Positions 1-36,875 are shown, counted from the first letter of the stretch. The stretch: 36,875 bases of DNA from a virus (IMGVR_UViG_2700989507_000031), one strand, 5' to 3'. Program-made: numbers and translations. Notes: generated by a model from the letters alone, not told the origin.

Positions 1-1830
1 CCTGCCGTGGTTGATGCGGTGGAGGCATATCGCGGATCACCACAACTGATGGTCGAACGCCTTAATGCCCTGACTGAAAACCAGCGCCAGGTGGCTGATG
101 CACGAATCGCGATCGTCAGCGAAGTTCTGAAAGTCGCGCAACAACCTGGTTTCAGCTGTGCGAAGGCTATCCGGTTTATCGTTGACAACCTGGCACGTTC
201 GCAGCTGGACGAGCGCATTGTGGCAATGGTTGAGACGGCGAACGCCAAAAAGGGAAACAGCCGCGCGTTAAGTGAAATCACGCTGAAACGCTGGATTGCG
301 GCCTTTAACAAGGCGCAGAACGCCGCTGAACGCCTGCTTTTACTGGCGCCGGGTAAGCGCCAGGAAATAAAAGCCGAAGATATTAACTGGCTGCCCGAAT
401 TTCTGGCGCAGTATCGCCAGTCAAACGGCCGACCAATGACCGAGGCTTACGAGGATTTTGTCGCTGAATGGCAGCACCGGCACGCTGATGAGCCTTATAT
501 GCTCGATATCATGCCGTCTTATGACACCATTCGCCGCGCAATGAAGAAACTGCCGGAAGTGGTGAAACAAAAAGGCCGGGTGACCGGCAGTGAATACCGC
601 CAGCTTGAGGGATTCACGCGCCGCGACTGGTCCAGAATGCCGGTGAATTATGTCTGGATTGGTGACGGTCACGGCATGAAGCTGAAATGCGCACACCCGG
701 TTCACGGTCGGCCATTTGCACCGGAAGTGACCTTTGTTATCGACGGTGGCACGCGCTTTGTGGTGGGCTGGAGCCTTGACCTGGCTGAAAATGTTTTCGC
801 CGTAGCCGGTGCCATACAGCACGGCATTCGCCATCACGGCAAACCGTTTCTGTATTACTCGGATAACGGCTCCGGGGAAACCGCCGACATCCTGGATAAG
901 GAGGTTGTGGGGATACTGCCGCGACTGGGGATTAATCACCCGACCGGGATTGCCGGTAATCCGCAGGGACGAGGCATTATCGAACGGCTTAACCGCACAT
1001 TACCGATGCGCATAGCCCGTAAATACCGCACCTATTTCGGGAAAGGTGCAGATCGCGAGACGTTACGCAAAACCAACCGCGATTTACGCTCGGCATTTAC
1101 TGCCCTGCAACAGGGCAAACGGCTGAACGCCCAGCAGCAGTCAGCGATGCGTGATTTACCGTCCTGGTCTGAACTGATTGATGCCATTCGTGATGGTGTT
1201 GAGTGGTACAACAACCGGCCGCACGATGAATTACCGGTGAAGCCGAACGGGAAGCATTACAGCCCGGCGGAGTTCAGAAAAAAACGCCTGGCGGAAGAGG
1301 ACACGGAAATTGAATGGCTGTCCGATGTGGAATTGCGGGACATGTTCCGGCCGATGGTGGAACGCCCTGTAAGACGCTGTGAAATACGCTGGCTGAATAA
1401 TATTTACTACGCGCCCGAGCTGCGTGATGAGCATGGCCGCAAGGTGCTTATCAGCTATGACATTCATGATGCCGAACGAATTACCGTACGTCGCCTGGAT
1501 GGCAGCGTGATTTGCGAGGCGGTATGGGACGGTAATAAACGCGAAGCCTTCCCGGTTAGCGCGGAATACTACAAACAGCAGCAACGCCTTAAAGGCATGC
1601 GTAAACGCGCAGAGGAAAAAATCCGTGATGCCGAGGATGAGGTTGTCAACGTGCTGGAGCACAAGCCGCAGGAGCCCTGGCTGGAAAACATCTATCGCCC
1701 GGTAGGTAATACGGTGGCCGTTCAGCAACCTGCCGTTGATGATGAGCCTGATGAAGAATACGAGCGCAATTTCCAGCGGGGATTGCAGTTGCTCGAAGCG
1801 AAATTAAAAGAAAATGACCCGCTGGCCTGA
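1..1830 (+). CDS. DDE transposase, MuA-like; 5' end truncated by window edge
   Basis: Reading frame is open from base 1 (codons cct gcc precede the track start at 7). DDE-like blocks 'VWIGDGHGMKL', 'YYSDNGSGE', 'IIERLNRTLP'. Immediately followed by a MuB-like ATPase gene. Confidence 0.88.
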   Translation, partial: PAVVDAVEAYRGSPQLMVERLNALTENQRQVADARIAIVSEVLKVAQQPGFSCAKAIRFIVDNLARSQLDERIVAMVETANAKKGNSRALSEITLKRWIAAFNKAQNAAERLLLLAPGKRQEIKAEDINWLPEFLAQYRQSNGRPMTEAYEDFVAEWQHRHADEPYMLDIMPSYDTIRRAMKKLPEVVKQKGRVTGSEYRQLEGFTRRDWSRMPVNYVWIGDGHGMKLKCAHPVHGRPFAPEVTFVIDGGTRFVVGWSLDLAENVFAVAGAIQHGIRHHGKPFLYYSDNGSGETADILDKEVVGILPRLGINHPTGIAGNPQGRGIIERLNRTLPMRIARKYRTYFGKGADRETLRKTNRDLRSAFTALQQGKRLNAQQQSAMRDLPSWSELIDAIRDGVEWYNNRPHDELPVKPNGKHYSPAEFRKKRLAEEDTEIEWLSDVELRDMFRPMVERPVRRCEIRWLNNIYYAPELRDEHGRKVLISYDIHDAERITVRRLDGSVICEAVWDGNKREAFPVSAEYYKQQQRLKGMRKRAEEKIRDAEDEVVNVLEHKPQEPWLENIYRPVGNTVAVQQPAVDDEPDEEYERNFQRGLQLLEAKLKENDPLA

Positions 1831-1901
1831 AATAAAAAAATAACCCGAGCGGCGACTCAGGTTATTTGATTAAACAAGGTATCAAATGAGAGGTTAATAA
1901 T

Positions 1902-2712
1902 ATGACTGATATTAACGATGTAATCAAGACCATTGATGAACTTATTGATGGCGGCGTACTGACGCAGTATGCCATCGCCAGAGAGGCGGGAATTTCCGAC
2001 GGCACATTATCGGCTTTCCGTAAGGGAAAATATAAAGGCGATAACGCTGCTGTGGCTGCTTCCCTGCGTTCCTGGTATGAGAACTGGAATAAACAAAGCG
2101 CACTGCCGGAACCGCCGCAGTTTGTGGAAACGCAGACAGTCCAGGAGCTGCGCGCACTGTTTCAGGCGGTTCGTCTGATGGGCTGTATTAACGTTATTGT
2201 GGGCGTACCGGGTGTGGGTAAAACGGCCACTGCCCGTAATTACTGCCAGGAGCAACCAAACACCTGGATGATCACCCTGTCACCCGCGCACTCCAGCGTC
2301 ACGGAGTGTCTGCTGGAGCTGGCCGATGCGCTGGGGATTGATTACACCCGCGCGAACAAAGGGGCATTATCCCGCGCCATCCGCCGTCGCCTGATGGGAA
2401 CGCGTGGACTGGTTATTGTGGATGAGGCGGATCATCTTGGTATTGACGGTCTGGAGCAACTCCGGGCAATTCAGGACGCCACGGGGATCGGGATGGTGCT
2501 TATTGGTAACCCGCGCGGATTGTTTAAAGGTGGACGCCGCACCTTTGATGATTTATCGCGCCTGTTCAGCCGTCTTGCCCGTACAAAACAACTTCGCAAG
2601 GCCAAAAAGGCGGATGTGCTGGCCATTGCCAGGGCGTGGGGGATCAGTGGTGAGGCCGAGCTGGCCGTCATGCAGGCTATCGCTGAAAAGCCGGGAGCGT
2701 TACGCGTTCTGA
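1902..2712 (+). CDS. Transposition ATPase, MuB-like (AAA+); 3' end lost in assembly gap
   Basis: Walker A 'GVPGVGKTA' and Walker B-like 'LVIVDEADHL'. Position directly after the transposase. The track ORF reads through the N run, so the true C-terminus is unknown. Confidence 0.85.
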
Positions 2713-2783
2713 NNNNNNNNNNNNNNNNNNNNNNNNNNNNNNNNNNNNNNNNNNNNNNNNNNNNNNNNNNNNNNNNNNNNNNN
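2713..2783. other. Assembly gap (71 N)
   Basis: Run of N in the sequence; the B gene and the gam gene are both interrupted. Confidence 1.
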
Positions 2784-2784
2784 A

Positions 2785-3288
2785 GGCCGCAGCGAGGCTG
2801 CACCGCAGACCCGCGAAGAAGTCAGCCGCGATATCCGCACCCTGGGCGATATTCAGCGAGAGGCGCTGCGGCTGGAAACGGCGATGAATGATGAAGTGGC
2901 AGAAATCACCGCCCGTTATACGCCGCAGATTGAAAACCTTAAAAAAGAAATCAAAGTGCTTTTTAAGGGGATTCAGGACTGGTGCAAAACCAACCGAGAT
3001 GAGCTGACGAACGGCGGCAAAACCAAAACAGCCAATCTGACCACCGGAACGGTGTCATGGCGACTGGGGAATCCATCATGCAGCGTCAGTCGTGATGTTG
3101 AAGGCGTGATTGAAATGCTGCGCCGTATGGGGCTTGAGCGATTCATCCGCACGAAAGAGGAAGTGAACAAGGAAGCGGTCCTGGCGGAGCCGGATGCAGT
3201 GAAAGGCATTGCCGGTATTAAGGTGAATAAAGGCGCTGAAAGTTTTTATGTCGAGCCTTTTGAACAGGACGCCGGACTGAATAAATAA
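2785..3288 (+). CDS. gam: Host-nuclease inhibitor Gam-like protein; 5' end lost in gap
   Basis: Frame is open back to the gap (APQTREEVSRDIRTLGDIQREALRLETAMNDE...). 'WCKTNRDELTNGGKTKTANLTTGTVSWR', 'RFIRTKEEVNKEAVL' and 'PFEQDAGL' match Mu Gam as recalled. Confidence 0.8.
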   Translation, partial: GRSEAAPQTREEVSRDIRTLGDIQREALRLETAMNDEVAEITARYTPQIENLKKEIKVLFKGIQDWCKTNRDELTNGGKTKTANLTTGTVSWRLGNPSCSVSRDVEGVIEMLRRMGLERFIRTKEEVNKEAVLAEPDAVKGIAGIKVNKGAESFYVEPFEQDAGLNK

Positions 3289-7607: not shown

Positions 7608-8033
7608 ATGGCAGAAACTCAGATGAGCATGTTTGGTGGTGACAGTGAGCAACTGCACGCCCTTATCGACCGCCTTGATGACATCCCTGATGATGTTCTC
7701 AAAAAGAACTGGCCGCGGACCCTGTCAGAACTGGTTGAAGTCACCGGCGCAGAACTTCAGCGTCAGGGGATTGAGCCGGTACTGGCCGGTAAACTGGCAC
7801 GCAAGGTGGCTGCGGCTCAGGCAGCCTATATGGGCGGACGGGGTTATTACCTGCCGGTCGGGGAATCTCTCTTTGCCGAGCTGCGAAACAATGAGATATT
7901 TTCGCGCTGGGACCGGGGCGAGAAAATTGAATCCCTTCGCCGCCATTACCGGATGTCAGAAACCCAGATTTATACCGTCATACGTGAACAGCGCCGTCTG
8001 CATCTGGCAAGAACGCAACCGCCACTTTTCTGA
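7608..8033 (+). CDS. mor: Mor/C-family transcriptional activator
   Basis: 'GGRGYYLPVGESL' and C-terminal HTH-like 'EKIESLRRHYRMSETQIYTVIREQRR' parallel Mu Mor; SD 'ggagg'; lies between gemA and the lysis genes. Confidence 0.75.
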   Translation: MAETQMSMFGGDSEQLHALIDRLDDIPDDVLKKNWPRTLSELVEVTGAELQRQGIEPVLAGKLARKVAAAQAAYMGGRGYYLPVGESLFAELRNNEIFSRWDRGEKIESLRRHYRMSETQIYTVIREQRRLHLARTQPPLF

Positions 8034-15235: not shown

Positions 15236-15356
15236 CGGTCAGTGGCGGGGGTCGAACCCGCATACATGATCCACCCGGAGGCAGGCACCGACTTTACCAG
15301 TTAAGCGTACACTGACCGCCTGCTTATTTTATATTCATATTTTATACGGAGGCAAT

Positions 15357-31426: not shown

Positions 31427-31987
31427 ATGCTGATTGGCTATATACGCGTATCAACAAATGACCAGAACACCGGTTTACAAAGAAATGCGCTGGAATGTGC
31501 AGGATGTGAGCAGATTTTTGAAGACAAAATGAGTGGTAAAACGACACAGCGGCCGGGACTGAAGCGGGCACTGAAGAAACTAAAACCCGGTGACACGCTG
31601 ATGGTCTGGAAACTGGACAGGCTGGGGCGCAGTATGCGCCACCTTGTTGCGCTGACAGATGAATTACAGCAACAGGGGATAAATTTTCGTAGTCTTACTG
31701 ACAACATTGATACGTCAACCCCCATGGGGCGCTTCTTTTTTCACATAATGGGTGCGCTGGCAGAAATGGAGCGTGAATTAATTGTCGAACGGACACGGGC
31801 TGGTCTTGCAGCTGCCCGTGAAAGGGGACGAACCGGCGGCAGACCCCGCCGTCTCACGCAGGAACAATACGAGCAGGTCGGGCGTTTACTGGCCGGGGGT
31901 GTCAGTCGAAGACAGGTGGCACTTATTTTTGATATCGGTCTTTCAACCCTTTATCGTTATTATCCTGCGAGCGTTTCGGAAAAATAA
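31427..31987 (+). CDS. gin: Serine DNA invertase, Gin/Hin/Pin/Cin family
   Basis: N-terminal 'MLIGYIRVSTNDQN' with catalytic Ser; C-terminal HTH 'GVSRRQVALIFDIGLSTLYRY'; SD 'aaggaagg'; adjacent to the invertible segment. Confidence 0.95.
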   Translation: MLIGYIRVSTNDQNTGLQRNALECAGCEQIFEDKMSGKTTQRPGLKRALKKLKPGDTLMVWKLDRLGRSMRHLVALTDELQQQGINFRSLTDNIDTSTPMGRFFFHIMGALAEMERELIVERTRAGLAAARERGRTGGRPRRLTQEQYEQVGRLLAGGVSRRQVALIFDIGLSTLYRYYPASVSEK

Positions 31988-32086: not shown

Positions 32087-34126
32087 ATGACGTCCAAATG
32101 GGTTCAACTATCATCAATGCCCGGAAACTTTACTGTTAAAGTTTCCGGTGGTACAGCGGCATTTCTTGAGGCTCCCTTTCCTCCGGCCGAAACAAAAGGA
32201 GGAATGACATTTGCTGACTGTCTCATCAGTTTTAATACACGGGATTGCCTGTGGGTAAGGCCAGTATCCGGTGATCCGAGTGTGGAAATTACCGGAGCGG
32301 GTATTGGTGCGGTCATTCCGTTAAGTGCTGATGTTGCCGGTACTGCTGAACCGTCAGACTGGGATAATGCTGAAACACATACCCGTCCGTCAGGAAATGA
32401 AACTGCTTCCAGCTCCCCTTCCTGGTATTACGTGGTGGTTCTTGCTGGTCAGTCAAACGGTATGGCTTACGGTGAAGGTCTGCCACTGCCGGAGACATAT
32501 GACCGCCCCGAACCGCGTATTATGCAGTTAGCCCGTCGCAGTACAGTCACGCCGGGAGGTAAAGCCTGTCAGTATAACGACATCATTCTGGCCGACCACT
32601 GTCTGCATGATGTGCAGGATATGAGTGGAAAAAATCACCCGAAAGCGGATGTGGCTAAAGGGCAATATGGCACCGTGGGTCAGGGGCTTCACATTGCCAA
32701 AAAACTGCTGCCGTTTATTCCGGCAGATGCGGGGATTCTGCTGGTTCCCTGCTGCCGTGGTGGTTCTGCATTCACGGCGGGTGCTGACGGCACGTACAGT
32801 GACAGCACGGGTGCTTCAGAGGACTCAGCCCGCTGGGGTGTGGATAAGCCGCTGTATAAGGACTTAATCAGCCGGACAAAAGCGGCACTGGCGAAGAACC
32901 CGAAAAACCGCCTGCTTGCTGTGGTGTGGATGCAGGGCGAGTTTGATATTGATGCGAAGCCGACGGAGCATTCTGCGCTGTTTCTGGCGATGGTGGAAAA
33001 ATTCCGCGCAGACCTGGCTGAACAGGCGGAACAGTGTACCGGTGGCAGTGCTGCTGGCGTTCCGTGGATTTGTGGCGATACCACGTATTTCTGGAAACAG
33101 AAAAATGAACCAGCATACCAGGCAATCTATGGCGGCTACAAAAACAAAACAGATAAAAACATTCATTTCGTTCCATTAATAACAGATGAAAATGGCGTGA
33201 ATGTACCCACCAACAATCCGGCAGAAGACCCGGATATTGAATCCATTGGTTATTACGGCTCAACGTGGCGTAACAGTGCCGCTACCTGGACATCTGCGGA
33301 CCGGGCCAGCCATTTCAGTGCCTGGGCGCGCCGGGGTATTATTTCTGACCGTCTGGCCACGGCTGTTCTGACTCATGCAGGGCGAACCACAGTAAAAGCC
33401 GATGTTCCATCTTCTGAAACTGAAGCACCAGTGCCATCACCTTCAGAAACTGAAGCAGTAACCACAACACTGCTGTCTTACCGTGTCAGTGAGTCAGAAG
33501 GAAATCTGAAAGCCCAGGGCTGGGAGCCGGCTGGCGGTAAAGCTGAAATTATCAGTGATGCAGGAGGCACAGGTGGTAAGGCAATGAAACTGACCAAGGA
33601 AACAGGTAAATCATCCTGGTATCTGGATCATGATGCCGGTACTGGTGCTGAACTGCTGAAAAATGGTGGTTTAATCAGTTGTCGTTTTAAAGTACCTGGC
33701 GACCTGGTGGCAAACCAGTATGTCATGGCGCTTTACTGGCCGGTTTCCTCTCTGCCGCAGGGTGTCACCCTGACAGGGGATGCAGGGAATAATCTGCTGG
33801 CATCGTTCTACATCCAGACAGACGCAAAAGACCTGAATGTGATGTACCACAATGCAAAAGTGGCAACAAATAACCAGAAACTGGGAACCTTTGGTGCATT
33901 TGATAATGAATGGCATACGCTGGCCTTCCGTTTTGCAGGAAATAACAGCCTTCAGGTTATTCCGGTTATTGATGGTCAGGATGGTGCCGCGTTTACCCTG
34001 ACGCAGTCACCAGTAGGAACTTTCCCGGTGGACAAACTCCGCGTAACGGATATCACCAAAAATGCAACTTACCCGGTGCTGATTGACAGCATTGTGGTGG
34101 AAGTGAAAAAAGCGGTAACAGAATAA
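32087..34126 (+). CDS. Multi-domain SGNH/SASA-like carbohydrate esterase (N-terminal ~110-aa domain, esterase core, S/T/E/P linker, C-terminal beta-sandwich-like domain)
   Basis: Esterase block 'YYVVVLAGQSNGMAYGEG' (GQSN motif); linker 'SSETEAPVPSPSETEAVTTT'; no N-terminal signal peptide; SD-like sequence upstream. Confidence 0.6.
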   Translation: MTSKWVQLSSMPGNFTVKVSGGTAAFLEAPFPPAETKGGMTFADCLISFNTRDCLWVRPVSGDPSVEITGAGIGAVIPLSADVAGTAEPSDWDNAETHTRPSGNETASSSPSWYYVVVLAGQSNGMAYGEGLPLPETYDRPEPRIMQLARRSTVTPGGKACQYNDIILADHCLHDVQDMSGKNHPKADVAKGQYGTVGQGLHIAKKLLPFIPADAGILLVPCCRGGSAFTAGADGTYSDSTGASEDSARWGVDKPLYKDLISRTKAALAKNPKNRLLAVVWMQGEFDIDAKPTEHSALFLAMVEKFRADLAEQAEQCTGGSAAGVPWICGDTTYFWKQKNEPAYQAIYGGYKNKTDKNIHFVPLITDENGVNVPTNNPAEDPDIESIGYYGSTWRNSAATWTSADRASHFSAWARRGIISDRLATAVLTHAGRTTVKADVPSSETEAPVPSPSETEAVTTTLLSYRVSESEGNLKAQGWEPAGGKAEIISDAGGTGGKAMKLTKETGKSSWYLDHDAGTGAELLKNGGLISCRFKVPGDLVANQYVMALYWPVSSLPQGVTLTGDAGNNLLASFYIQTDAKDLNVMYHNAKVATNNQKLGTFGAFDNEWHTLAFRFAGNNSLQVIPVIDGQDGAAFTLTQSPVGTFPVDKLRVTDITKNATYPVLIDSIVVEVKKAVTE

Positions 34127-34131
34127 AAAAA

Positions 34132-34160
34132 TCCCGCCGGTCATGATATGGCTGGCGGGA
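34132..34160. terminator. Hairpin after the esterase gene, flanked upstream by an A-run
   Basis: 'tcccgcc...ggcggga' stem with 15-nt loop. The A-tract lies 5' on the + strand, so it would act as a U-tract only for minus-strand transcription. Confidence 0.3.
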
Positions 34161-34272
34161 GCTACCTAACCCATAAAGGAAAATAAAAATACTCCCGAAG
34201 GAGTGGTTATCAGTCGCTTCGATGTTTTTACCCGATAACGAATTATGTAGTCAATATCAAAGGTAAGGTTAT

Positions 34273-34455
34273 ATGACATTCGTTCATACAATGCTGCTTT
34301 ATTTCTGCGCTGTGGTCAGTGCGTTATATCTGGTGAGCGGCGGTTATAAGGTCATCAGAAATTATATTCGCCGTAAAATTGATGATGCGGCAGCTGAAAA
34401 ACTCAGTAAAACAGCACAGGCACCGTCATCCCCAAACGACCCGACCCCGCTCTGA
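34273..34455 (+). CDS. Small membrane protein (60 aa)
   Basis: N-terminal TM 'MLLYFCAVVSALYLVSGG', then a charged tail. Confidence 0.4.
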   Translation: MTFVHTMLLYFCAVVSALYLVSGGYKVIRNYIRRKIDDAAAEKLSKTAQAPSSPNDPTPL

Positions 34456-34490
34456 TAACGGGGCAATATACCTGCAAAAGGAGAATATTC

Positions 34491-34736
34491 ATGCCAGAGA
34501 TTAAAGGCACGGTTACTGAAGAGCTTGTCAAACAGGCACTTTATTCTGAAGAAGTGAACCGCGTGCTGAAGGCGCAGGTTCGCAAGGATTTTGAGGCACA
34601 AATCGACGCATATGTTGATGAAGTGCTGGCCCGAATGGTTGGTCGTTCTCCGGCTGAAAACAGCACGGAAAATGAGCCTCAACCAGTAGAGCAACCAGAG
34701 CCGGTTCAGCCCGGAACTGACAGTGCCATGATGTAA
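34491..34736 (+). CDS. Small acidic hypothetical protein (81 aa)
   Basis: Strong SD 'aaaggagaa' 6 nt before ATG. Confidence 0.5.
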   Translation: MPEIKGTVTEELVKQALYSEEVNRVLKAQVRKDFEAQIDAYVDEVLARMVGRSPAENSTENEPQPVEQPEPVQPGTDSAMM

Positions 34737-35180: not shown

Positions 35181-35255
35181 TTTCTCCTGCCTGAACAGAT
35201 GCATCTCTGCTTTACAGGAGACCGGGGAATATCATAGGATACACCACGAGCTCAG

Positions 35256-35413
35256 AGTGAAGCATTGATGCAGTTTTTTACAGATTGACCCAGAATAGTT
35301 CGCGCTATCTGAGTCGCCATTTATGTAGTCCCGAAGTAAAGCATTGATGCAAACTTGTCTAAATCGGCCCGGAATAGTTCACGCTATCTGGGTCGTCCTT
35401 TATGCATGTAGTA
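35256..35413. repeat. Two tandem imperfect direct repeats of ~79 bp
   Basis: Unit 1 (35256-35334) and unit 2 (35335-35413) share 'a[g/a]aagcattgatgca' and 'cc[a/g]gaatagttc[g/a]cgctatctg[a/g]gtcg'. Confidence 0.8.
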
Positions 35414-35447
35414 TCCCGTTGATTTGAAACACACTATACGTACTTGC

Positions 35448-35625
35448 GATCCTACCTTCACTGGATAAAAAGTCAATAAAATGATCATTTTATGATCGTT
35501 TTCACCACCTAACTCTTCGTTTTCTTTAAGTAAATAATCACCGTCCTGAATCATTGTTGATGACTTTTAAATCTATTTGTTGTATCAATTAAACAAATCG
35601 AATCGATCGTTTTTGTCGATCGATT
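35448..35625 (+). promoter_or_regulatory. AT-rich control region with five GATC sites upstream of com
   Basis: GATC at 35448, 35483, 35494, 35605 and 35618. Direct repeat 'atgatcatttt/atgatcgtttt'; palindromic pair 'aatcgatcg' (35601-35609) and 'cgatcgatt' (35617-35625). Confidence 0.45.
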
Positions 35626-35668
35626 GCATGAGAAAGGCATCAACAACAAAGCAGGAGGTTATGCGGCC

Positions 35669-35854
35669 ATGTATCGAAACATACGGTGCCGACACTGCAA
35701 TAAGCTACTGGCACGGGCCAGTTTCAGTTATCTGGAAGTAAAATGTCCGCGCTGTAAAACCCTCAATCAAATCACATCTCAGAGCGCCACAGAGCACCCC
35801 ACATACACAAGGAAATCCTGCCGTGGGGAACAAGAAACATTACTTTCAGTCTGA
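35669..35854 (+). CDS. com: Com-like zinc-finger translational regulator
   Basis: 'MYRNIRCRHCNKLLARASFSYLEVKCPRCKTL' parallels Mu Com 'IRCKNCNKLL...IRCPRCK' as recalled; SD 'aggagg' 10 nt before ATG; 3' end overlaps the downstream gene by 32 nt, as com overlaps mom in Mu. Confidence 0.7.
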   Translation: MYRNIRCRHCNKLLARASFSYLEVKCPRCKTLNQITSQSATEHPTYTRKSCRGEQETLLSV

Positions 35855-36875
35855 TAAGTCACTAACCTATGGTTCAGTATGCAGTGGTATTGAAGCTGCG
35901 ACAGTAGCCTGGAGCAATCTTGGCTGGAAAGCCAGATGGTTCAGTGAAATAGAGGACTTCCCGTCAACACTTCTTTCATATCGCTGGCCCCATATACCAA
36001 ATCTTGGTGATATGGCTTTGCTTGCGCCTCGTATCAGGGATGGGCTTATTGAAGCACCAGATATTCTTGTAGGTGGAACTCCGTGTCAGGCATTCAGTAT
36101 GTCAGGCAAACGAAAAGGCCTTTCAGATCCACGGGGGCAGTTAACACTGTCTTTTGTTGAACTGGCGAATCAGATAGATACCGTTCGGGCATCGCTCAAT
36201 AAATCCCCCTCAATAATCGTATGGGAAAACGTCACAGGAGTTTTAAGTAGCCATGACAATGCATTCGGTCATTTTCTTGGTGCGCTGGCCGGAGCAGGTT
36301 GCGCATTACAGCCAGCAAGGAAAAGATGGGCAAACGCTGGTGTTGTGTCTGGACCATCGCGTATCGTCGCCTGGCGAGTACTTGATGCCCAATATTTCGG
36401 AGTCGCCCAGGCTCGCAGAAGAGTGTTTGTTGTGGCAAGTGCTGGAAAAAGGCTCGATCCCGGAAAGGTATTATTTGAGTTCCCGCCTGTGTCGCAGGGC
36501 GATAAAAACTATTATGGAAAGAAGAAAAAATCCGAATCCCTTCTTGATCAAGGCATTGAAGGAAAATTGCACCGATATTGCCTTGAAGCATTGCCAAAAC
36601 GAACAGGCACAGTAATAGCTGGCTATAACGGAACAACTAACCAGGACATGACTATGTCTGGTGGGCTCATAGTTGAAAGAGCACCATATTCAAGGGTTCG
36701 TAGGTTGACGCCAACCGAATGCGAGAGGCTACAAGGTTTTCCCGATGGATATACAGATATTCCATGGAAAAATTCATCTCCAGCTCATCGTTATAAGGCC
36801 ATTGGAAATTCAATGCCTGTACCGGTCATGAAATGGATTGGTCGAAGAATACAGGAAGCGTTAAACGAAGTTTAA
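35823..36875 (+). CDS. DNA (cytosine-5) methyltransferase
   Basis: Motif I-like 'YGSVCSGIEAA', catalytic PCQ motif 'GGTPCQAFSMSGK', motif VI 'IIVWENVTGVL'; stop TAA ends the window. GTG start inferred from the track. Confidence 0.85.
   Translation: MGNKKHYFQSDKSLTYGSVCSGIEAATVAWSNLGWKARWFSEIEDFPSTLLSYRWPHIPNLGDMALLAPRIRDGLIEAPDILVGGTPCQAFSMSGKRKGLSDPRGQLTLSFVELANQIDTVRASLNKSPSIIVWENVTGVLSSHDNAFGHFLGALAGAGCALQPARKRWANAGVVSGPSRIVAWRVLDAQYFGVAQARRRVFVVASAGKRLDPGKVLFEFPPVSQGDKNYYGKKKKSESLLDQGIEGKLHRYCLEALPKRTGTVIAGYNGTTNQDMTMSGGLIVERAPYSRVRRLTPTECERLQGFPDGYTDIPWKNSSPAHRYKAIGNSMPVPVMKWIGRRIQEALNEV

Follow-up and report, generated by a model that had tools for sequence, protein, structure and literature searches.

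A Com-family gene and a predicted orphan cytosine-5 methyltransferase in the mom slot of a Mu-like Escherichia coli prophage

Background

According to the published model for phage Mu, the protein Com recognises a short hairpin, immediately 3' of which follows a 'translation inhibition structure' with the GUG start of mom in its stem, and systematic evolution of ligands by exponential enrichment (SELEX) with a Com homologue yielded the bipartite motif NGAGNNCC(N)2-3GAGNNCCNN (PMC6483171). Com homologues are also found next to a DNA adenine methylase at the mom position in FluMu, Pnm1, Haemophilus influenzae biotype aegyptius (Hia5) and Pseudomonas phage B3 (PMC3299994), and it was proposed that Com controls these adenine methylases, keeping them silent until lytic growth (Drozdz et al. 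2012, PMC3299994). No cytosine-5 (C5) case is mentioned in that paper (PMC3299994). Here we analyse IMGVR_UViG_2700989507_000031, a stretch of 36,875 nucleotides (hereafter the window), which ends with a com gene overlapping a gene for a predicted C5 methylase. Our best explanation, which we consider likely as a whole, is that com and the methylase gene form the right-end modification operon of a Mu-like (Sp18-type) Escherichia coli prophage, with mom replaced and its control retained.

The com and methylase genes

The gene pair comprises the following features.

35653..35658, plus strand: com ribosome-binding site AGGAGG, 10 nt ahead of the ATG, read from the sequence.
35669..35854, plus strand: com, encoding a 61-aa Cys4 zinc-ribbon translational activator of the Com family (PF10122, PHROGs, Mu Com alignment, annotation by the Prokaryotic Genome Annotation Pipeline, PGAP).
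35823..36875, plus strand: gene of a predicted orphan C5 cytosine DNA methyltransferase of 350 aa with a GTG start (PF00145, TIGR00675, motifs).

The com reading frame starts with ATG at 35669 and stops with TGA at 35852-35854. Its product matches Pfam family PF10122 (Zn_ribbon_Com; E=5.8e-13, 48.5 bits, curated cut-off 22.9) and PHROG 13819 ('gpCom control of modification', 1.5e-13), and is 46% identical to Mu Com by alignment. Cysteines C7, C10, C26 and C29 align with the zinc cysteines C6, C9, C26 and C29 of Mu Com and are invariant in our alignments. As judged by these matches, the small open reading frame (ORF) is a true member of the Com family.

The methylase gene runs from GTG at 35823 to TAA at 36873-36875 and overlaps com by 32 nt (35823-35854). 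Its product covers profile positions 5-323 of 324 of PF00145 (E=1.6e-42), the sole Pfam match of this payload, and matches TIGR00675 (dcm, 1.1e-39); the closest solved structures are M.HhaI (E=2.7e-16) and M.HaeIII. The conserved C5 motifs I, IV (PCQ), VI (ENV), VIII, IX and X are all present, with CSGIEAA at aa 20-26, GTPCQAFS at aa 85-92, WENV at aa 134-137, QARRRVF at aa 196-202, RRLTPTECERLQGFP at aa 293-307 and AIGNSMPVPV at aa 326-335. Motif I is of the SGIEAA variant that is common to the phage relatives. The GTG at 35823 is the sole in-frame ATG, GTG or TTG between the upstream stop codon (35739-35741) and codon 64, and is thus the only start that retains motif I; alternative start codons were ruled out, as none lies ahead of codon 64. 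In E. coli 90-3040, RefSeq (PGAP) annotates both genes with identical boundaries. The first-pass annotation, made from the window alone, had described a Com-like Cys4 peptide overlapping by 32 nt the GTG start of a C5 methyltransferase with PCQ and ENV motifs, and had suggested aligning the small protein to Mu Com; the family matches, the coordinates and that alignment all agree with its description.

Ahead of the conserved catalytic domain, the enzyme has a leader of 13 aa, MGNKKHYFQSDKS. Relatives that have no upstream Com (Pectobacterium phage ZF40 and several IMG/VR contigs; 64-71% identity) align only from residue 12-14 on, and the leader therefore belongs to the Com-linked form of the enzyme. 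The gene body has a G+C content of 46.4% compared to 53.7% for the window, which is consistent with import.

Replacement of mom in E. coli prophages

Among 5,426 complete E. coli genomes, the com region was found at 285 places in 233 genomes, the mom body (query from the O157 sibling prophage) at 274 places in 227 genomes, and the methylase body at 11 places in 10 genomes. The two payloads together cover every com locus (274 + 11 = 285). All 11 methylase copies adjoin Com, span the full query at an identity of at least 99.6%, and are each labelled DNA cytosine methyltransferase by PGAP. The com gene and the inverted repeat upstream of it match those of the com-mom prophages.

35601..35625, plus strand: perfect 9-bp inverted repeat AATCGATCG-N7-CGATCGATT with two GATC (Dam) sites at 35605 and 35618, the counterpart of the Mu mom GATC cluster.
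35823..35832, plus strand: left recombination junction GTGGGGAACA (codons M-G-N), identical in both versions and followed directly by divergence (com-methylase prophage L002 versus com-mom prophage L003).

The junctions were mapped by ungapped base-by-base comparison of L002 and L003, which differ at three single bases across the upstream region, com and the first 10 nt of the payload. Similarity returns about 100 bp before the common right end ...CGCCGCGCTATA. The break after GTGGGGAACA and this return near the right end indicate an in-frame replacement that extends from payload codon 4 to shortly past the stop codon. The Sp18-type siblings show 95-99% DNA identity as far as the tenth nucleotide of the payload, and BLAST homology to com-mom genomes ends at query position 538, i.e. 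window position 35837. The sibling payload in L003 matches the Mom family PF25680 at 6.6e-77, and the Pfam search with the window payload gave no match to this family. On this comparison, the methylase occupies the exact slot of mom in near-identical sibling prophages, and the view that it stands 'in place of mom', put forward in the first-pass annotation, now has a mapped in-frame swap point and a complete account of the com loci behind it. The swap also alters the C-terminal tail of Com, from ...GEQKASHIPYHQHA to ...GEQETLLSV; a study of a Com homologue reported this C-terminal part to be dispensable for RNA binding (PMC6483171).

Predicted Com operator and start-codon hairpin

Two RNA elements are predicted at the 3' end of com, immediately ahead of and across the methylase start.

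35782..35798, plus strand: predicted Com operator GAGCGCCACAGAGCACC, within com codons S-A-T-E-H-P, an exact match to the SELEX motif GAGNNCC(N)2-3GAGNNCC.
35797..35828, plus strand: predicted translation-inhibition hairpin, CCCCAC (35797-35802) paired with GUGGGG (35823-35828), supported by fold, alignment and covariance model.

The operator motif has a single match in the window on both strands, compared to about 0.067 expected by chance, and is found at the same place in loci L002, L003, L006, L009 and L010. Its last CC is the start of the 5' arm of the hairpin, and the 3' arm includes the methylase GUG start, as in Mu. The methylase Shine-Dalgarno sequence AAGGA (35809-35813) lies in the loop and is partly contained in an AGG/CCU helix (35810-12 with 35817-19). 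The minimum-free-energy fold has -10.9 kcal/mol compared to -8.7 kcal/mol for the Mu hairpin.

We aligned eight loci, namely the window, the O157 com-mom prophage, Citrobacter braakii (C5), Chuche and Salmonella (both N6/N4), Mu and two more com-mom loci. The six-pair stem is 100% paired across these loci and thus across three payload classes (Mom, N6/N4, C5), shows one compensatory C-G to U-A change, and drops to 33-57% pairing if the partners are slid by 1-3 columns. The covariance model built from this alignment (R1) gave one strong match in the window (73.7 bits, 35778-35835) and weaker, position-consistent matches at the com 3' ends of many distant loci, with Snodgrassella, Neisseria, Magnetococcales, Methylophaga and Pseudomonas phage PAN70 among their sources. 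The Com-C5 locus of Kiloniellaceae likewise has a strong hairpin in which its start codon is buried. An Rfam scan of the whole window matched no family, so that the operator and hairpin form an element without an Rfam family. From these comparisons, a single RNA switch in enterobacteria appears to serve all three payload classes, whether Mom, an N6/N4 methylase or a C5 methylase. The first-pass annotation had argued that the regulatory logic of Com was carried to a different modification chemistry and had pointed to the mRNA around 35800-35830 as the place to look for a start-occluding hairpin; the hairpin found there and the retained operator bear out the part of this argument that sequence can address.

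In Chuche, the deposited methylase ATG (L006:2643-2651) lies only 2 nt past a GAGGAG site. An in-frame GTG two codons later, located in the 3' arm of the hairpin with normal spacing, is the more likely start.

Payloads downstream of Com homologues

We surveyed a one-genome-per-species collection by a search with a 3-sequence Com alignment (survey 1, 75 Com loci with a downstream ORF) and 80 IMG/VR contigs that encode the closest Com relatives (survey 2). The downstream genes were distributed as follows.

D12-class adenine methylase: 52 of 75 in survey 1 (14 from one Methylophaga genome), 3 of 80 in survey 2.
N6/N4 methylase: 6 of 75 in survey 1, 37 of 80 in survey 2.
C5 methylase: 3 of 75 in survey 1 (Citrobacter braakii, a Kiloniellaceae metagenome-assembled genome (MAG) and an Aquirhabdus MAG), 9 of 80 in survey 2.
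Mom: 2 of 75 in survey 1, 29 of 80 in survey 2.
No family match: 3 of 75 in survey 1 (Neisseria cluster), 1 of 80 in survey 2.

The other nine loci of survey 1 have other or probably spurious neighbours, and one locus of survey 2 is without a downstream ORF. The D12 adenine methylase is thus the commonest Com partner at species level. The C5 enzymes of the two MAGs belong to a different C5 subfamily with the classical FxGxG motif I, which indicates that C5 methylases were joined to Com more than once. A neighbour-joining tree of methylases placed the E. coli-type and Citrobacter-type enzymes apart, but it is too crude to decide between single and repeated capture of these enzymes by Com. The diverged Citrobacter-type lineage (68-69% identity) has retained the architecture seen in E. 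coli.

Full-text literature searches for a pairing of Com with a C5 methylase found no paper beyond the adenine-methylase precedent. RefSeq automatic annotation already labels the E. coli pair as 'Com family... regulator' and 'DNA cytosine methyltransferase'. The pairing of Com with C5 is an incremental extension of the published theme of Com plus adenine methylase and not a surprise. The rewiring of Com proposed in the first-pass annotation is accordingly new with regard to the C5 partner, for which we found no paper, and not with regard to a methylase other than Mom, which was already published, or to the pair as such, which was already annotated automatically.

Some Com homologues, in Neisseria (L014:3057-3971, L016:486-1418, L078:3072-4004) and Acinetobacter (L019:3104-4027), are overlapped or immediately followed by ORFs of about 300 aa. 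These ORFs had no Pfam or PHROG match and may be uncharacterised DNA-modification payloads, or their start codons may be wrongly chosen. Methylophaga thiooxydans DMS010 (L027, L035, L038-L048) has at least 14 Com-D12 loci on a dozen scaffolds of one genome, with the same Com-match statistics and identical coordinates and lengths of Com and the downstream ORF; these repeats represent either many Mu-like insertions or assembly redundancy.

Proposed mechanism and alternative explanations

Our interpretation is that the mom coding sequence was probably replaced from codon 4 on by a phage-type orphan C5 methylase, that the upstream control was kept, and that translation of the methylase is gated by Com. 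The operon would be transcribed from a promoter overlapping or adjoining the GATC palindrome, and com would be translated first, while the methylase GUG and Shine-Dalgarno sequence would be locked in the CCCCAC...GUGGGG hairpin. Binding of Com to the adjacent GAG-NN-CC-N3-GAG-NN-CC, whose 3' CC is in the 5' arm, would open the hairpin and allow translation of the methylase. The enzyme would then mark replicated phage DNA before packaging, and the progeny would enter the next host already carrying a 5-methylcytosine (m5C) pattern that shields them from the restriction enzymes it blocks. Tight control would leave the chromosome of the lysogen unmethylated, the rationale being that chromosomal m5C harms McrBC/McrA/Mrr-positive E. 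coli. Pre-methylation of phage DNA as a 'Trojan horse' has been reviewed (PMC12707154). Com dependence, late timing, protection and the cost of leaky expression are carried over from Mu in this scheme and would hold by analogy.

Several observations weigh against this interpretation. The hairpin is unremarkable by folding alone (z = -1.3 to -2.0 compared to shuffled sequences), which is why we take the support for it from the comparative evidence, and the covariation is minimal, with a single compensatory pair, which divides two clades. Since com codons (E-H-P-T) contain both the operator and the 5' arm, protein constraint could account for part of their conservation. Upstream, a segment of about 31 bp, which in Mu contains the C-protein site, is missing, and a promoter scan of 35200-36875 found no convincing (sigma-70-like) promoter adjoining com. 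No common late-promoter motif was evident in the other intergenic regions of the window. While Mu has separate Mor and C genes, only one Mor/C-family activator gene was found in the window (7608-8033, between gemA and the lysozyme gene); the same single Mor/C-type layout was noted in a paper on a Mannheimia Mu-like phage. With the C-site segment absent and neither a promoter nor a late motif located, late timing is an assumption. As for the benefit, m5C also exposes DNA to type IV restriction by McrBC, McrA and Mrr, and a site-specific m5C methylase guards against far fewer enzymes than Mom, which makes its net benefit uncertain.

This narrow protection also fits an alternative in which the methylase is controlled by Com and has a task other than anti-restriction, i.e. 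an epigenetic or life-cycle role in packaging, replication or gene regulation, as known for Dam methylation in P1. The C5 domain of P1/P7 Dmt shares 46-47% identity with the enzyme, and P1 depends on the Dam activity of dmt for packaging (PMC12707154); a literature search on the specificity of the P1 Dmt C5 domain returned nothing relevant. We nevertheless consider such a role unlikely, because the methylase sits in the exact slot of Mom, a dedicated anti-restriction enzyme, sibling phages do without it, and the slot is filled interchangeably by Mom, N6/N4, D12 and C5 enzymes, which argues for generic DNA protection and not for sequence-specific regulation.

The position of the hairpin inside com raises the question of passive coupling, in which com ribosomes melt the hairpin, the Com protein is irrelevant, and the operator-like motif is a by-product of com codons. 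Ribosomes translating com must cross 35797-35828, since com ends 32 nt past the GUG, the operator falls into the conserved codons A-x-E-H-P-T, and the weak hairpin z-scores point in the same direction. We rate this explanation as improbable: the published Mu model has the Com protein binding beside the inhibitory structure (PMC6483171), the operator sequence agrees with the SELEX consensus throughout, synonymous positions included, and has no second match in the window, and Com is intact and conserved across the three payload classes.

That the methylase is an inactive or decaying passenger from illegitimate recombination is effectively excluded. Its rarity (11 of 285 E. coli com loci) and foreign G+C content would suit such an origin; the catalytic motifs are, however, all intact within a full-length Pfam match, the 11 of 11 E. 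coli copies are complete, near-identical and annotated by PGAP, the junction is precisely in frame, the Citrobacter-type lineage has diverged with the architecture maintained, and the carrier phage occupies different insertion sites.

Since the window stops at the methylase stop codon, it could not by itself exclude a nuclease gene just outside, but the alternative that the methylase is one half of an ordinary restriction-modification (R-M) system is rejected with near certainty, as the relatives have a Mu-type right end 105-167 bp past the methylase stop, followed by interrupted host or Shiga toxin (Stx) phage DNA. In E. coli 90-3040, the disrupted comEC begins 125 bp past the stop codon and the prophage ends at about 165 bp, as in L091 and L120; for strain CI5, yfcU is annotated as the host gene 167 bp downstream of the methylase; in an Stx1a phage, the Mu-like insert ends 164 bp past the match and the Stx phage backbone follows; and in two IMG/VR contigs and Citrobacter braakii, the right end is within about 105-165 bp of the stop. 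The PGAP annotation of the 38-kb prophage of 90-3040 contains no nuclease gene. With the prophage ending this close to the methylase in the relatives, there is no nuclease partner, and the methylase is classified as an orphan. The first-pass annotation had seen no restriction partner upstream and had proposed to inspect the sequence beyond 36875, for which these relatives provided the answer. What is established at the level of sequence are the gene identities, the exact in-frame junction, a conserved operator and hairpin, and the lack of a nuclease partner, and the parts of that earlier reading that could be checked at this level were all supported.

Upstream region and prophage setting

In alignments, the GATC cluster of the window falls into register with its counterparts from Mu, Citrobacter, Chuche, Salmonella and an Enterobacteriaceae com-mom locus. 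GATC sites mediate Dam/OxyR control in Mu, according to a later paper that cites the original work (Sun & Hattman 1996). Just 5' of the GATC palindrome, at 35575-35598, lies a second inverted repeat, ATTTGTT-N10-AACAAAT, which could be a regulator binding site. The sole terminator match in 35200-36875 was the GATC palindrome read on the minus strand, and was rejected.

The window is a Mu-like prophage by the gene content of a near-identical copy in E. coli 90-3040, in which PGAP annotates transposase, Gam, GemA, Mor, lysis, head, tail and Gin genes, followed by com and the methylase gene. Compared to the real prophage, the window is truncated at both ends. It starts within the transposase gene (607-aa ORF compared to 696 aa in 90-3040), and two genes upstream of the transposase gene in 90-3040 (PGAP: hypothetical protein and helix-turn-helix protein) are missing (1-1830 region). 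At the other end, the window closes with the methylase stop codon and lacks about 160 bp up to the right end ...CGCCGCGCTATA; this codon is also where an IMG/VR contig carrying a 100% identical methylase terminates. Matches in the phage collection fall under 'inserted Bacteriophage Mu-like phage' features inside Stx phages. The carrier phage occupies differing insertion sites (comEC, yfcU, Stx phage) and is therefore mobile. Mu-like phages of the matching lineage of Shiga-toxin-producing E. coli (STEC) resemble Sp18 of O157 Sakai (PMC10132054).

Between the Gin-type invertase gene (31427-31987) and com, the window contains a block that is absent from Mu (32087-34736). It encodes a 679-aa protein with a sialic-acid-specific acetylesterase (SASA) domain and DUF6645, followed by DUF1378 and DUF826 genes. 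The SASA/DUF6645 block is also present in the O157 com-mom sibling, and we take it to resemble the NanS-p esterase region of Stx/lambdoid prophages. For the intergenic region that corresponds to about 15236-15356 (minus strand), the PGAP annotation of the 90-3040 prophage has a 'tRNA-OTHER'. This segment looks like a tRNA 3' half in the window, and ARAGORN detected no tRNA anywhere in the window.

Implications

These closely related enterobacterial prophages amount to a natural test of modularity, with one RNA switch and three unrelated DNA-modifying enzymes. The swap point maps to a few nucleotides past the start codon and points to a clean exchange of payloads on a conserved translational switch. 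This suggests that any enzyme whose expression would endanger a lysogen is served by the Com/hairpin unit, and that a simple exchange of cassettes is how phages switch their anti-restriction chemistry. The Com operator and hairpin represent an RNA family missing from Rfam. The carriers are active transposable phages in STEC that insert into Stx phages, and their DNA modification may thus influence the spread of phages between strains.

More speculatively, two ideas could hold together: that the Com operator and hairpin are a portable safety switch, an RNA of about 50 nt that doubles as a homology patch for payload exchange at codon 3-4, and that the C5 enzyme recognises relaxed or short sites, as a cytosine counterpart of the non-specific adenine methylases Hia5 and EcoGII, which occur in this slot. 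We regard this combination as doubtful. If the enzyme were indeed relaxed, it would provide broad anti-restriction cover, which would explain the need for tight control, and a methylase of relaxed specificity could be useful in its own right.

Comparison with known systems

The closest described system is com-mom of Mu (also D108, SfMu and Sp18-type prophages). It shares with the window the four cysteines of Com, an operator 5' of a stem that buries the GUG, the upstream GATC cluster, the overlap of com with its payload, and a payload that is the last gene before the right transposon end. It differs in the payload, which is the Mom acyltransferase (PF25680) in Mu and a C5 methyltransferase (PF00145) here, and in the hairpin loop, which has 11 nt in Mu compared to 20 nt and an extra Shine-Dalgarno-masking helix here.

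FluMu Hin1523, Pnm1 Nma1821, Hia5 and B3 ORF47/48 likewise have a Com homologue followed by a DNA methylase in the mom position. These methylases are, however, adenine N6 enzymes of the D12 class, of which Hia5 and Hin1523 are non-specific, and com and methylase genes of the Haemophilus loci do not overlap and are separated by a gap of about 56 nt. Chuche and the Salmonella/enterobacterial prophages (N6/N4, PF01555) have a near-identical operator (GAGAGCCATCGAGCACC), the same CCCCAC...GUGGGG hairpin and a Com that is 61-65% identical to that of the window. Their payload is a different member of the methylase superfamily, and the element bears an integrase and is not a transposable Mu-like phage.

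On the side of the enzyme, ZF40 gp27, the C-terminal domain of P1/P7 Dmt (annotated Dam in P7) and Bcep22 belong to the same C5 subfamily with the SGIEAA motif I. The window methylase is 64% identical to that of ZF40 and 46-47% to those of P1/P7, but these relatives have no upstream Com and lack the 13-aa leader (MGNKK...), with the alignment beginning at residue 12-14. The type II R-M enzymes M.HhaI and M.HaeIII are of the same fold family; in contrast to them, the window methylase has no cognate nuclease, and its translation would be under the control of a phage RNA switch.

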